Positions 3,796-37,896 of a stretch of 43,151 bases of DNA are shown piece after piece. Positions within the stretch are counted from its first letter, which is position 1. Each line of letters opens with the position of its first letter. Below the pieces are notes generated by a model that was given only the letters and a program-made list of their open reading frames with translations, ran no database searches and was not told where the DNA came from. The position numbers were made by a program, and so were the translations under genes. The DNA is from a virus (lineage: Duplodnaviria; Heunggongvirae; Uroviricota; Caudoviricetes), in IMG/VR virus record IMGVR_UViG_2917403263_000003. One strand, given 5' to 3'.

Positions 3796-5457
3796 TCACC
3801 CCCAGAATGCATCACCATCGGTCATGCGAGAACGCTGACCAAAATTAATATCTCCCAGATTTTTCGTTACCCTGTCTGCCAGTTGTCCGGCATCCTCGCC
3901 GGGCTTCTGAGTGATGTTAAATTCCGCCCGTATCTGATACGTGGGTTTTACTTCCACCTGGCTGATACTGCCGGGGGTATCCTGAAGAGCCGAGAGAGGA
4001 TCCGGGTTTTTCTGCTCCTGCCCGACAGCAGGCAGCGCACCATATTTCACCAGACCATTGCGGATTGCCTCTTCCCACCCCTTAAAGTCGGGAGTATCTT
4101 CTGGCCCCAGCAAAGGGTCGAGAAATGCATCAAACTTTTTATCGTCATGATTCCATGGGAGATAACCGCGAGTGTCTTTATAGGCCTGTACAACCTGTTT
4201 CGTCAGGTCCGGATTTTGCCTGAGAAGTTCATCAAACCATTCACCCTGACCGTTTTTCTGCGCCACCGCTCTCGCCAGCTCCGGCGACCCCATTTTTGCC
4301 AGATATTCCAGCACTTCTCGTCGGTCCTCTCGCGGATCATCCGCCAGCCCCCACTCAATGGCTTTTTGTGTAATTCCGCCCAATACTTTTCCGAATTTCC
4401 ACATCCATGCAGCCATCCTGATCAACGTCGGCAAAGCGACGTCATTTATAAATTCCTGAATTTTTTCAAGTCCACCATTCTTAAACCAGTCCGCAAGGTC
4501 ATCCGTCACCTGTTGAATATGTGGTGACAGCTCCTTACCCAGTTTCCCACTGATGTCATCAATGGAAGAGCTCAGAACATTACGGAGATTTGACAGCGCC
4601 ACATGCCCCTGAACTGCGCCATCAGCCCCTTCCTTTGTCACCAGGTTATAGCGTTTCTGCTCACTGATAAGTTCCTGGAAGGTCTTTCCTGACAGACGCA
4701 TCCAGGTCAGAATTTTATTGGCCTCACCACCAAACAGCGCATCTGCCATACCCGCCGCCTGCTGCTCATTCTCCACCTGCAGTAAGCGTTCAAACAAAAA
4801 TTCGACTTGCTCCTGGTTGCTTTTTCCGGCCATTACGCCCGCCTTCAGCCCCAGTTTACCGAATACCTCCTGAATGGCTCCTTTGTCCGTGGCACCATTA
4901 TCATCGTCAAAAACCTTGTTCCGGTATTCCTCAAACAGATCACCGATGTTTTCGCCGTTTAACCCCATCTGCCGGCCCAGTGAATCCCACGCCGCATAGG
5001 TTTCATAATCCACCCCGTAACTCCGGGCTATCCCTGACCGCTCTGCCGTTTCCGCATTCCGGTTCAGTACCGCGCCGGCACCGGCTGCCAGCGTCAGTCC
5101 GGAACCAACCGAAAGCCCCAGCCCGGTTTTAAGAACCGTCCCGGCCCGTCCTTTCCAGCGTTCCAGACGTTCTGCCCGCGCCAGCTTACGGTTAAATTTA
5201 TCCTGTTCCCCGGTGGCATCATGAATTTTTCTGCCCAGCTTTTCATACTGCTTTCGCAGTTCGGTAATATCCTGTCCTGCCAGTACACCAGCCTGAATTT
5301 TTCGTTTCAGTACGTCCTGCTGGCGTGTCAGGCGAGCCACTTCCTGTGTTGCCCCTGATAATCCGTGCTTCAGTCCATCAACCGATTTTTTCCACGACGG
5401 ATCTATCGAACCTCCGATCCGGATATTCGCTTTAAGGTTATCGCCCACCGTTGCCAT
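3796..5457 (-). CDS. tail tape measure protein
   Basis: 553 aa, Gly/Ala-rich N-terminal segment, long helical region; positioned after chaperone E/E' and before U; ATG at 5455-5457. Confidence 0.8.
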   Translation of the reverse strand: MATVGDNLKANIRIGGSIDPSWKKSVDGLKHGLSGATQEVARLTRQQDVLKRKIQAGVLAGQDITELRKQYEKLGRKIHDATGEQDKFNRKLARAERLERWKGRAGTVLKTGLGLSVGSGLTLAAGAGAVLNRNAETAERSGIARSYGVDYETYAAWDSLGRQMGLNGENIGDLFEEYRNKVFDDDNGATDKGAIQEVFGKLGLKAGVMAGKSNQEQVEFLFERLLQVENEQQAAGMADALFGGEANKILTWMRLSGKTFQELISEQKRYNLVTKEGADGAVQGHVALSNLRNVLSSSIDDISGKLGKELSPHIQQVTDDLADWFKNGGLEKIQEFINDVALPTLIRMAAWMWKFGKVLGGITQKAIEWGLADDPREDRREVLEYLAKMGSPELARAVAQKNGQGEWFDELLRQNPDLTKQVVQAYKDTRGYLPWNHDDKKFDAFLDPLLGPEDTPDFKGWEEAIRNGLVKYGALPAVGQEQKNPDPLSALQDTPGSISQVEVKPTYQIRAEFNITQKPGEDAGQLADRVTKNLGDINFGQRSRMTDGDAFWG

Positions 5458-25179: not shown

Positions 25180-25601
25180 AGATACTGCTCCAGTGGTAGC
25201 TGCAGCGCCTGCGCAATTTTCTTGAGCTGTGTCTCCTCCTCCGGACCAATGCCATCCTGGTCAGCAATATCCAGACACAGGCACAGCACATTAACTGCGT
25301 CATCAGTACCGGCAACATCAGCCAGCTGACGAAGGGCTTCGGCATTGGCAGAACGCGGTGACGCTTCATAACGGGCGCGGATATTGGCACTCATCTGGGC
25401 AATCTCACCGGAGAACGGCGCAAAGGCAGGAAGTGCTGCAATGGTTTTCTCCAGTACCGCGATTTCTTTCGCATCACAAGTACCGTCGGCGAATGCAATG
25501 GAATACGCACCCCAGACAGTCGCCTCCACTGCATCGCGGTTCTCCATTTTCTTTACTTCAGTAATGGCTTTGCGGGTTTTCTTTTTGAAAATACCAAACA
25601 T
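25176..25601 (-). CDS. TerB-like domain protein
   Basis: 141 aa; IAFADGTCDAKEIAVLEKTI and CLCLDIADQDGIGPEEETQLKKIAQAL resemble the two halves of TerB; ATG 25599-25601 with AGGA RBS. Confidence 0.5.
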   Translation of the reverse strand: MFGIFKKKTRKAITEVKKMENRDAVEATVWGAYSIAFADGTCDAKEIAVLEKTIAALPAFAPFSGEIAQMSANIRARYEASPRSANAEALRQLADVAGTDDAVNVLCLCLDIADQDGIGPEEETQLKKIAQALQLPLEQYL

Positions 25602-25781
25602 CGTGACGTTTCCTTTTAGTGGGTGAGCCTGCGCCCGGGGGTGACCAGCCCACAGAGAAAGTCACACTGACCATCCCGTAAGTTCACCCCTGAAAGGCTC
25701 TGTGGTTTTGATGTGCGCCGGGCGTGGCGCGGAAATAAAAAAGGCCCGCCGTAGCAAGCCATGAAGAAACTGAATTCAGAA

Positions 25782-25808
25782 TAAAAAAAACCGCCCGGTG
25801 GAGGCGGT
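25782..25808 (-). terminator. intrinsic terminator downstream of tRNA pair
   Basis: accgcc-cggtgga-ggcggt hairpin followed by T8 on minus strand. Confidence 0.5.
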
Positions 25809-26169
25809 TGGTCAATGCATGAGATAAATCATTTTATTGTAATAAGAATCGAGGTGTCGGGTGCCTCCCGAAATATCCATCCCTACAACAGATATTGTGA
25901 TTCCCCGCTAAACCACTATATAAACCACCCTCGCACTGAGGAACACCTCTTTAGTGTTATTTACAACACCGGGATAGTGCATCATCGGCCCTGCCAGGAA
26001 ATACAAAACCTCCACCGATAATGCACCATTCCGTTGTTGTAAAAAAACAGCACTGTGACTACAACCGACCTCAAATCATAGCCAGAAAACAGAATGTCTT
26101 TTAAAAACAACCAGCCCCCACGTAACAAAAAAATACGCCAGTGCCACGATACAATAAGGCTTGTTTCTC

Positions 26170-26249
26170 TGGAGCGGGTCGCGGGAATCGAACCCGCATC
26201 ATCAGCCTGGAAGGTTGAGCTGAGGTAATAGCCATTATACGATACCCGC
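26170..26249 (-). tRNA. tRNA-Gly(UCC)-like gene with 5-nt insertion in anticodon arm (possible pseudo-tRNA)
   Basis: Acceptor, D and T arms and CCA match a tRNA-Gly(UCC) scaffold, but the anticodon region reads TCAGC-TCAACCTTCCAG-GCTGA (12-nt loop); acceptor position 7-66 mismatched. Confidence 0.5.
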
Positions 26250-26252
26250 ATA

Positions 26253-26328
<76 letters not shown>

Positions 26329-27693: not shown

Positions 27694-27978
27694 TCACTGC
27701 GGAAGGCGTCTGTAACAACCGAACTGATAATCTGCCAGACCCGCCATAACAAGCTGGGTCAGTATTAACTGGCAGCGTTCGCGTGAAAGGTAAGTATTCT
27801 GCGCAATTTCCCCGACGGTCGCCGGTTCGGTGACGCTTAATTCATTAAACACCACTCTGGCGGTTTCGGTCATATCCTGCTGTTTTAGCATGTCTTTTTC
27901 CATTTTCTGGTTAACGTGACATACCAATAACTCTTGTCTAAAAAGACAGCAAGCTGAAAGACAGGTATTCGCAACCAC
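27694..27978 (-). CDS. small putative winged-helix DNA-binding protein
   Basis: Listed ORF starts with GTG; ATGs at 27903, 27891, 27873 give 59-69 aa; flanked by terminators on both sides. Confidence 0.3.
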   Translation of the reverse strand: MVANTCLSACCLFRQELLVCHVNQKMEKDMLKQQDMTETARVVFNELSVTEPATVGEIAQNTYLSRERCQLILTQLVMAGLADYQFGCYRRLPQ

Positions 27979-28013
27979 CAGCGCGTTTAACGTCCTGTGC
28001 CTTTTTCAGGTAT

Positions 28014-28039
28014 AAAAAAACCCGCTTGGCGGCGGGTTT
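28014..28039 (-). terminator. intrinsic terminator downstream of Q (tR'-like)
   Basis: 8-bp stem aaacccgc / gcgggttt with 6-nt loop followed by T7 on minus strand, about 560 bp downstream of Q. Confidence 0.6.
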
Positions 28040-28594
28040 AAGCTGCGTGGCGAAGCAACCACTCTTAACAGGGTATCTAAATTTTTACGATCGTAAATAC
28101 TTTTGAGTTGGTTAATATTGTCCGTCCGCACATATTGGCAAATTCGTATACCCCGGCTGATGCGCCATATGCAGAGGTGCACAAGTCGGCCCACTTTTTT
28201 TCTCTTGATGCGTGTTTTTCGCTCGCACATCAGGTTGATTGTTTTTTATGCGCGATATTTTGTTGTTCACCTTATTTGTTCTTTTCTTTTGAATGGTAGA
28301 TTCTTGCTCCTCACTCTGCTTTATATTCGCTCCATCGACTGCCCCAAAATAATCGACCCCTCTAGCTGAATGAGACTCATCCTTACTTGCATTATTATAT
28401 CTATGATAATGATGTGTATGTGAACGATGGTACGATCTTTTATATCTCCGCTTTGCATCAGAAAAAGAAGAAAAAAAACAAACAAATCACCAATGTTAAA
28501 AAAAATTGACGTTCTAAACATATCCACCTTGCTTAATGTATTACGAGAACTTTTTTATTCTCTCCATTCATTCCGAATAAAAAAATGATACAAG

Positions 28595-28975
28595 TCAAAC
28601 CGACACAGCCAAATCCATCTCAAGAGAAACATCCAGCATCATTAACATACCATCAATAACGCCTTCTGCTTTTTGCAATCGTTTACCAATACAAGTATCA
28701 GAACACCCATGTTTCTCTGCCAGTCTCATGAATGTCATTCCAGCAACGTAATAGTCGACCAACAGATCATGTAATCTATTATTATTTTTCTTAAGGCGGG
28801 CCATACATCCACAAATAATCATTGCATCGTCATCACTACATTGTGGTCGTGATTTGACTTTTGAAGGAATAAGCCCTTTGAATCCTGCCGCAATAGTAGG
28901 CCAGGCCACATCTTCATAATTATTTGCAACCCACGCCCCCCAACGCTCAAGGACCATCTGAATATCACGCATCAT
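28595..28975 (-). CDS. late-gene antiterminator Q (phage 82/21-type)
   Basis: [15 protein letters not shown]...[13 protein letters not shown]...LLVDYYV closely resembles Q of phage 82 as recalled; ATG 28973-28975. Confidence 0.8.
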
Positions 28976-29336
28976 CGTTATCACCTGTAATTTCGAAAAT
29001 CTTCACACCCAGTCGCCCACCAAGAACAGGCAGCCCACGCACAATAGTAATTTCATCAAACTGCTCGTCATCGATAAGCAGTCCCGCATGCGTCAGTGCA
29101 TCCAGTGGTGCTTTCAGGATGTTGTCCAGGTCGCGGCGGCGCTTATCCGGTGGCTCTGCAACAATCTTTATTGCCAGCCTTCCGGACAGGTTTAATTTCA
29201 GCCGCTGCTGACGAACAATAAGCGCCACATCACGGCGATAACGCTCACCGGCTTTTGATACAAAATATGTGCTGCCACGACGTCGCCAGTAGGTGTTCAC
29301 CGTCGGCGGGTAAGGCAAAACAAACTCTATACGCAT
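28965..29336 (-). CDS. rusA: Holliday junction resolvase RusA
   Basis: 123 aa; [15 protein letters not shown] start and catalytic-region [18 protein letters not shown] typical of RusA. Confidence 0.85.
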
Positions 29337-31343: not shown

Positions 31344-31499
31344 TTACTCCTCAGGTTCGTAAGCTGTGAAGACAGCGACCTCCGTCTGTCCGGTTCGGAT
31401 TCGTACCTCGCAGAGGTCTTTCCTCGTTACCAGTGCCGTCACAATGACGGTTAAACAGATGACGATCAGGGCGATTAGCATCGCCTTTTGCTGCTTCAT
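31344..31499 (-). CDS. hokD: Hok/Gef-family type I toxin
   Basis: 51 aa MKQQKAMLIALIVICLTVIVTALVTRKDLCEVRIRTGQTEVAVFTAYEPEE; single TM helix plus conserved CE(V/I)R motif; AAGGAG RBS; in-frame upstream extension in listed ORF. Confidence 0.8.
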   Translation of the reverse strand: MKQQKAMLIALIVICLTVIVTALVTRKDLCEVRIRTGQTEVAVFTAYEPEE

Positions 31500-31792
31500 A
31501 GCCTGCTTCTCCTTGCCTTTCGGCACGTAAGAGGCTAACCTACGTGTGCAAGTCATAGATATGGCCTCAGATTAATGTTAAGCGTCTTGCAGGACGCGTA
31601 ATGTTAACTGGGGCTTTTCTCTGTCTGCCTTACAGTGGCATGCCCGAGGCAGACAGCCTCAAGCACCCGCAGCAATTCTACTTAACTATCTTTCTCCCGC
31701 AAATCGTTTTTATCCCCAGCGGCAAATCGAATACACCACCAGCGCCACCGCCAGTGCAATTCCTACTGTTGTGAATGCTTTAGGCTAGGTCA

Positions 31793-37838: not shown

Positions 37839-37896
37839 TTTCTGGTGACGTTTGGCGGTATCAGTTTTACTCCGTGACTGCTCTGCCGCCATTTTT
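37839..37896 (+). ncRNA. dicF: DicF small RNA (ftsZ-targeting sRNA)
   Basis: tttctggtgacgtttggcggtatcagttttactccgtgactgctctgccgcc + T-run matches the DicF sequence as recalled; 3' GC stem plus U-tract; upstream of dicB-like gene. Confidence 0.7.

Follow-up and report, generated by a model that had tools for sequence, protein, structure and literature searches.

The closest described systems for the locus examined here are the late control units of phage 21 and lambda and the late regions of porcine Stx2e prophages. The phage 21 unit includes a −10-like, sigma-dependent pause element in the initially transcribed region. Its Q-binding element is embedded in the promoter and is a direct repeat, TGAGCA-N2-TGAGCA, with an 8-bp period (PMC6606751). 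A scan with the pattern TGAGCAAATGAGCAACA, deduced from an oligonucleotide in that paper, retrieved true phage-21-type units, which consist of TTGACA, TGAGCA-AA-TGAGCA, a −10 element, TAAG at +2 and a terminator by about +50; an unrelated coding match in L132 was retrieved as well. In lambda, a 194-nt leader (the 6S RNA) extends from pR′ to tR′. The Stx2e prophages carry an ORF of the WP_192297351 type within the order Q, gene, pR′ module, 65-aa gene, methylase and tRNAs, which is also the order found here; papers on Stx2e prophages and pR′ (PMC12571312, PMC6266700) describe neither this gene nor the promoter type.

The window analyzed in this study is a stretch of 43,151 nucleotides from a tailed-phage record (IMG/VR IMGVR_UViG_2917403263_000003) that represents a lambdoid prophage, with its late genes on the minus strand. 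Along that strand, from high to low coordinates, a DUF968/NinG-like gene, rusA and Q are followed by an interval that had been flagged in a sequence-only reading of the same DNA, and then by a terminator, a 65-aa gene, a DNA methylase gene, tRNA-Thr and tRNA-Gly. We read the interval, with a probability of roughly 0.72, as comprising three things: an AT-rich cargo gene inserted after the Q stop codon, the inactivation of that gene in this prophage, and a compact late control unit at 28097–28011. The features of the region are as follows.

30398–29349, minus strand: DUF968/NinG-like gene
29336–28965, minus strand: rusA
28595–28984, minus strand: antiterminator Q of the Q21 family (maximal ORF, from GTG)
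28522–28594, minus strand: spacer of 73 bp between Q and the cargo gene (from the sequence and alignments A1 and A3)
28527/28521–28321, minus strand: small ORF of the sequence-only reading (68 aa from GTG, 66 aa from ATG)
28112–28521, minus strand: frameshifted remnant of the cargo (moron) gene, ~135 codons (ATG at 28521, TAA at 28114–28112)
28498–28505, minus strand: first T8 run, with the first +1 insertion (gap at column 137 of A1 and A3)
28471–28478, minus strand: second T8 run, with the second +1 insertion (gap at column 166 of A1 and A3)
28060–28097, minus strand: predicted late promoter and putative Q-loading module (a block conserved in relatives of Q)
28097–28092, minus strand: −35-like TTTACG, inside the palindrome TTTACGATCGTAAA (28097–28084)
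28075–28070, minus strand: −10-like TACCCT, separated from the −35 by a 16-nt spacer
28070–28060, minus strand: conserved TGTTAAGAGTG
28011–28063, minus strand: predicted late leader of ~50 nt (5′ hairpin, CAGCTTA, intrinsic terminator tR′)
28062–28059 and 28050–28047, minus strand: predicted 5′ hairpin of the leader (GTGG paired with CCAC)
28039–28018, minus strand: stem of the terminator tR′, with its T7 run at 28020–28014 (terminator scan)
27694–27891, minus strand: first gene after tR′, 65 aa (phrog_331, PHROG E = 2.5e-42; called as a 65-aa gene in relatives)
27543–26497, minus strand: DNA methylase gene (Pfam)

The sequence-only reading had described positions 28040–28594 as an AT-rich island lying between Q and a tR′-like terminator, had equated it with the pR′-to-tR′ interval of lambda, and had noted on the late strand a strongly ribosome-bound small ORF. 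Its account of the composition is borne out. The island (28112–28594) has a GC content of 37.1%, against 49.8% for the window as a whole, the lowest 200-bp value in the region (29.5%) falls at 28400–28599, and both T8 and A7 runs are present. The terminator at 28014–28039 was found by a terminator scan as a hairpin followed by T7, and the 66–68-aa ORF at 28321–28527 does exist on the minus strand. The spacing of 5 nt given for AAGGTGG and the ATG holds if it is counted from the AAGG core, the distance from the final G to the ATG at 28521 being 2 nt. As an ORF it is statistically unremarkable, since dozens of ORFs of 30–90 aa are found on both strands of the same 5 kb. Searches of Pfam and PHROGs with its translation gave no significant family, and its sole match among 5.8 billion protein clusters was the same genome's own annotation (P0001).

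The gene upstream of the island is a clear member of the Q21 family, belonging to Pfam PF06530 (E = 5.7e-53) and matching the solved Q21 chains 6P18 and 6JNX (E = 6.9e-8). The NCBI annotation starts this protein at the ATG at 28972 (125 aa), and its TGA stop codon occupies 28597–28595. The 73-bp spacer that follows contains the Shine-Dalgarno-like AAGGTGG (28530–28524) and a short upstream frame (ATG GAG AGA ATA AAA AAG TTC TCG TAA) that is in frame with the cargo gene in E. coli relatives.

No match to the island was returned by megablast, whether against 50,697 phage records or against 5,426 complete E. coli genomes, nor by distant blastn or tblastn against the phages. Homologues surfaced only in distant blastn against the E. 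coli genomes, where a match of ~73% nucleotide identity across the whole island was present in 23 of the 5,426, always adjoining a Q-family gene; most of these are porcine Stx2e strains. An intact gene occupies the equivalent position in Stx2e prophages of pig strains of E. coli, in other E. coli and in E. albertii. K_EC180 (where it fills the island), L130 and the viral contig L056 have an intact ORF of 135–137 codons, and the gene is also intact in E. coli L131. Plus-strand ORFs of 88, 63 and 53 aa within the island were considered and rejected, as the alignment of homologues supports coding on the minus strand only.

Aligned with this intact frame, the window sequence shows two gaps only, each of 1 nt and each corresponding to an insertion in the window within a T8 run, the two runs being 27 nt apart. 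Intact homologues read ATTACTCTT at the first of these sites, without a long run, and C followed by T6 at the second. Removal of one T from each run yields a 135-codon ORF devoid of stop codons. Its product shares 80% identity with E. coli P0006 and 62% with the Stx2e-prophage protein, the corresponding nucleotide identity for the latter being 73%. Past the second T8 run, the frame that ends at 28112 stays free of stops over 118 codons (28470–28115), with the nearest upstream stop at 28489; an equally long open stretch appeared in 8 of 20,000 dinucleotide shuffles. For the intact pair L130 and K_EC180, the dN/dS ratio is 0.25 overall and 0.075 in the signal peptide (dS about 1.0), while the comparison of the window with L130 gave 0.40 overall and 0.43 in the signal peptide, values above those of the intact pair and thus fitting relaxed constraint. 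In the window assembly, the frame is therefore disrupted relative to homologues that are under purifying selection, as in a pseudogene, and to judge from these alignments the window copy of the cargo gene is probably dead, having gained an extra base in each T8 run within its signal-peptide codons. Independent ±1 homopolymer frameshifts occur elsewhere in the family, in one A run in UMNF18 and L048 and in another A run in L126.

From the alignment gaps and the two T insertions, the small ORF reads as the true start and first five codons of the cargo gene, followed by an out-of-frame continuation (in frames +1 and +2) to the first stop. The 66-aa ‘hypothetical protein’ of the existing annotation is an artefact of the frameshift. 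Thus the strong ribosome site noticed earlier is genuine, in that it and the ATG are the real start of the cargo gene, but the ORF is not by itself a gene product; ribosomes starting at this conserved site and at the ATG at 28521 would make an unrelated, out-of-frame peptide of 66 aa. The sequence-only reading had also held that conservation at the nucleotide level only would indicate a pure leader. Conservation is instead found at the level of protein, in a frame that differs from the one it had proposed.

Some further observations concern these frameshifts in relatives. An A-run insertion was seen in L010 and L048, and an A-run deletion in L126, at about 4290–4350. The cargo gene has been broken by ±1 homopolymer changes in at least three independent lineages, a pattern that may reflect either plain decay or on/off switching.

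The position of the late promoter is suggested by a block of sequence that lies 10–60 bp past the Q stop codon in Photorhabdus and Providencia loci containing relatives of Q. The block consists of TTTACGATCGTAAAA, 12 variable bases, TG(A/T)TAAGAGTG, a short variable stretch, CA(C/G)CAGCTTA, a GC-rich hairpin and a T run, and the same block is found in the window at 28097–28011. Expressed as a pattern, it reads TTTACGATCGTAAAA-N12-TGnTAAGAGTG, then CAGCTTA and a terminator. Viral contigs were scanned for it, giving more than 119 loci, and over all loci examined 118 of 125 module copies are preceded, on the same strand, by a Q21-family Q. The gap never departs from 12 nt in the 65 distinct copies, in each of which the hexamer found 16 nt after TTTACG starts with TA; this hexamer is overall TAyynT, in which the final T was part of the search pattern. 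In the window the −10 (TACCCT) is weak. Two other assignments, TAAAAA as the −10 and TGnTAAGAG as an extended −10, were judged less likely, there being no −35 or −7 T in most copies.

On this assignment a sigma-70 promoter would initiate transcription at ~28063, and the leader, of ~50 nt, would extend to the T7 run. The T run begins 40–59 nt past the predicted +1 in 56 of the 65 modules. Relative to the predicted start, the conserved TGnTAAGAG spans about −7 to +2; it may alternatively belong to the promoter or to a pause signal, which would shift +1 by several bases. The predicted fold of the leader (−18.6 kcal/mol, z = −1.66) is unremarkable, and its 5′ hairpin contains one GC-to-AU covarying pair, in 4 of 13 sequences, which lends it weak support. 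The island had been equated with the pR′-to-tR′ interval, an identification that does not survive: the promoter module starts at 28097, which leaves ~485 bp of the island upstream of pR′.

Two side observations were made on the module itself. The palindrome at 28084–28097 (minus strand) is perfect over 14 bp and contains the −35 region, and it is conserved beside Q in Escherichia, Photorhabdus and Providencia. In addition, the conserved TAAG (28060–28070) is complementary to the conserved CTTA (28039–28045) located ~25 nt downstream, with no covariation between the two; in phage-21-type units such as L225, the TAAG at +2 is followed ~20 nt later by CTTAAG. This pairing could correspond to an RNA stem, to two −10-like elements, or to coincidence.

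Compared to the phage 21 unit, the module displays several likenesses: its Q shares a Pfam family with Q21, whose solved structures it also matches, its promoter is compact, with conserved sequences between −35 and −10 and a TAAG element at or near +1, and it has a leader of ~50 nt with an intrinsic terminator. The differences are also considerable. The Q of the window and Q21 have only about 30% protein identity, the promoter spacer is 16 nt rather than 17, the distance from the start of the −10 to TAAGAG is 8 nt rather than about 13, and Q is separated from the promoter by 497 bp of cargo, unlike the arrangement in phage 21. The TGAGCA repeat is not present in the window module, which contains the palindromic TTTACGATCGTAAA instead (conserved TTTACGATCGTAAAA), and the Q-binding site in the window must therefore differ. 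The subgroup of Q proteins that is associated with this palindrome may bind differently from phage 21 Q. By analogy with phage 21, the Q protein of the window would nonetheless be loaded at the module. The lambda unit offers a looser parallel, with its constitutive short terminated transcript and a Q that modifies RNA polymerase promoter-proximally; in contrast to lambda, the Q of the window is from a different family, the predicted leader is ~50 nt in length (neither 194 nor 550), and the AT-rich island lies outside of the leader, upstream of the promoter.

These comparisons are consistent with the following sequence of events. The early Q transcript would extend at its 3′ end into the cargo gene, since a terminator scan found none between the two genes and the cargo gene has no conserved promoter of its own. 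Late transcription would start near 28063, at the module, and late RNA made without Q would end at 28014–28020 after ~50 nt. Q, loading at the module, would carry RNA polymerase through the hairpin at 28039–28018, and read-through by the modified polymerase would reach the 65-aa gene, the methylase gene, the tRNAs and the lysis genes.

Downstream, tRNA-Thr(TGT) and tRNA-Gly(TCC) follow the methylase gene at 26170–26328 (minus strand). In Stx prophages with the same Q/methylase backbone (L001 and L009), tRNAs are found at this position and are followed by stx. The window has no stx at 25600–26170, where ~570 bp without a long ORF precede the next gene. Elsewhere in the prophage, Rfam searches identified a hok/sok-type antitoxin RNA at 31494–31668 (minus strand; Rfam sok, 112.9 bits) and the DicF sRNA at 37840–37891 (plus strand; 73.4 bits). 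The Stx2e copies of the cargo gene are mostly intact and followed by stx2e, whereas the window copy is frameshifted and resides in a prophage without stx.

The island had further been considered large enough for a moron or a regulatory RNA. The first of these suggestions stands, in that moron-type cargo is present inside it, while no Rfam family matches the island. A search of 27900–28700 with Rfam 15 produced no match at the gathering threshold, and at both gathering and E-value thresholds the island was without an RNA family. The best sub-threshold scores (RNAI, 20.4 bits; isrK, 16.7 bits) covered only the terminator region (28012–28105), and the leader region of L018 similarly gave weak, terminator-driven matches only. 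Identification of the leader as isrK or isrJ was considered and rejected; isrK is a separate element, located within the cargo of other phages.

Three other explanations of the interval were weighed against the decay of a cargo gene upstream of a compact promoter. The extra T's might be homopolymer errors of sequencing or assembly, such that the gene is intact in the living strain and a 135-aa exported protein is expressed together with Q. The nature of the differences, both of them single bases in T8 runs so close together, is what such errors would produce, and the repaired frame is not only without stops but improbably open by the shuffling analysis above, encodes a signal peptide that is still hydrophobic, and perfectly keeps the C-terminal motif. 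Two independent errors would be needed, however, and the surrounding sequence has changed as well: several substitutions are found in nearby codons, and the dN/dS of the signal peptide is raised over that of the intact pair (0.43 versus 0.075). The independent homopolymer frameshifts in UMNF18, L048 and L126 indicate that genuine decay is common in the family, and we consider an assembly artefact to be unlikely. It is also conceivable that the T8 tracts act as a switch, with replicative or transcriptional slippage restoring the frame in a subpopulation and generating a phase-variable protein. Both kinds of slippage are well established at long A or T runs, and the disruptions in the three lineages are all ±1 homopolymer changes. 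Such a switch would have to correct both tracts, and the tracts are not conserved, the intact relatives having ATTACTCTT at the first site and T6 at the second, and this explanation appears very improbable.

The last of these explanations would make the whole 550 bp a pR′-tR′ leader and would assign a regulatory function to the 66-aa ORF or to an island-derived RNA. A weak promoter-like sequence, TTGGCT-16-TATCAT (9 of 12 positions matching), does overlap the end of Q at 28612–28585, and the ribosome site and ATG are conserved. That promoter-like site is not conserved in relatives, however, and the promoter prediction that the sequence-only reading had proposed, while it did find five promoter-like sites, found no more than chance would supply (3.7 ± 2.2 in shuffles). 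The module associated with Q is located at 28097, the sequence of the ORF past codon 5 is conserved nowhere among the 5.8 billion clusters, and the island has no Rfam match other than the sub-threshold, terminator-driven ones at 28012–28105. A long leader is already largely refuted, and we regard it as scarcely credible. We conclude that the AT-rich stretch consists mostly of a decayed prophage passenger, a moron of a small uncharacterised family, rather than of a long regulatory leader.

The slot between Q and the module was found to vary in content from locus to locus. The gap is 17–76 bp in most loci, and larger gaps fall into discrete classes:

about 500 bp: small secreted-protein cargo gene (only where that gene is present)
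561 bp: reverse-strand ORF
791–1073 bp: antirepressor-like ORF
875 bp (L077) and 1073 bp (L018): isrK and C4 RNAs besides the antirepressor-like ORF
1535 bp: reverse-strand ORFs
1723 bp: reverse-strand porin gene

Inserts homologous to that of the window have a GC content of 36–40%. The gene is present or absent among related phages at the same site, and its composition is unlike that of the flanking genes, as expected of a moron, and it is horizontally acquired. Between its stop codon at 28112 and pR′ at 28097 there is no terminator, and no conserved promoter of its own was found; it is accordingly a moron only if that term is used loosely, for cargo in general.

Porin genes, nmpC and lc, follow Q in DLP12 and PA-2. 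E. coli loci of the DLP12 type contain a porin remnant after quuD, and in L023 the slot holds a reverse-strand OmpC/NmpC-like porin gene. In L070 it holds reverse-strand ORFs of 268 and 174 aa. An isrK sRNA and a C4 antisense RNA, both above Rfam gathering thresholds, were found in L018 (1695–1880, minus strand) and L077 (1273–1459, plus strand), where the slot also contains a Bro-N/KilAC-type antirepressor ORF. These two loci match the layout of Gifsy-1, in which isrK-orf45-anrP follows antQ (PMC4825925). All such cargo occupies the same slot as in the window, after a Q21-family Q and before the same pR′ module. Unlike the cargo of Gifsy-1, DLP12 and PA-2, that of the window encodes a small, secreted, basic protein without a Pfam or PHROG family, and has been inactivated.

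The intact product is ~135 aa in length, and contains a signal peptide, a middle region rich in His, Lys and Arg, and a conserved two-cysteine motif at the C-terminus. By inspection of alignment A2, the signal peptide comprises MFKK, SLLLTLVMCLLFSSF and A-D-A, with cleavage placed between MFKKSLLLTLVMCLLFSSFA and DAKRR. The same alignment shows that the signal peptide is conserved and is followed by a basic, His-rich block (HKRSYHRSHTHHYHR) and a variable, Lys-rich middle. The C-terminus is nearly invariant across the family (PTCAPLxMAHxPGYTNLPICxDGxY), and it is perfectly kept in the window remnant (PTCAPLHMAHQPGYTNLPICADGQY). An AlphaFold model of the family contains a signal helix (residues 2–27), a C-terminal knot of moderate confidence and a disordered middle (pLDDT <50); overall confidence is low (pTM 0.19), and the model does not lend itself to a fold search. 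The signal peptide and the modelled helix suggest that the protein would be exported by a Sec-type route.

RefSeq calls the intact homologues (L009 2988–3488, WP_192297351.1; P0002 and P0006) as proteins of 166 aa that start from a TTG overlapping the end of Q. Both the conservation of the signal peptide and the distance to the Shine-Dalgarno sequence favor the MFKK start, which gives 135 aa; this start is probably the real one, and the N-terminal 31 residues are probably over-annotated.

Pfam and PHROGs searches with an intact homologue and with the repaired protein gave no significant family, the best hits being sub-threshold matches to low-complexity or signal-peptide sequence, and no match to the family was found in deposited phage genomes. 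Among the 5.8 billion clusters there are 8 at 90% identity, all from Escherichia, and a profile search of 1.84 billion representatives returned 11 matches at E ≤ 1e-3. Eight of the 11 (P0010–P0017) are distant proteins that have the C-terminal motif and, where they are full-length, also a signal peptide; two of them, P0010 and P0015, are found in other accessory contexts. One further match, to a 756-aa protein and made up of seven short stretches, is probably spurious. The family is restricted mainly to Escherichia.

Two remote relatives (L252 3001–3417 and L255 1017–1424) have in common only the signal peptide and PTC(A/S)PLxMAxxPGYTxLP(I/V)C. Their neighbors are either an integrase and a colicin/pyocin immunity gene, or CdiI and Fic genes, and one of the two has a YdcA-like N-terminal domain.

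In edema-disease E. coli, the promoter driving stx2e has intact copies of the cargo gene immediately upstream of it. A more speculative proposal, and one that we consider distinctly doubtful, is that this exported, basic, His-rich family (PTCAPLxMAHxPGYTNLPIC) is an unrecognised lysogenic-conversion or phage–host interface factor subject to homopolymer on/off switching, the window copy being ‘off’. If that were true, the protein might act in the periplasm or at the cell surface, bind metal, or have a part in superinfection.

For annotation, the analysis puts ~500 bp more between Q and the late promoter than would be assumed by analogy with lambda, and reduces the predicted leader to ~50 nt. 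The slot between Q and the module is a recurrent insertion point for cargo, which may be this gene, an isrK/C4/antirepressor cassette, a porin gene, or defence-like genes. The module itself, TTTACGATCGTAAAA-N12-TGnTAAGAGTG followed by a terminator, provides a practical marker of late promoters for this Q21 subgroup, which includes the Stx2e prophages.
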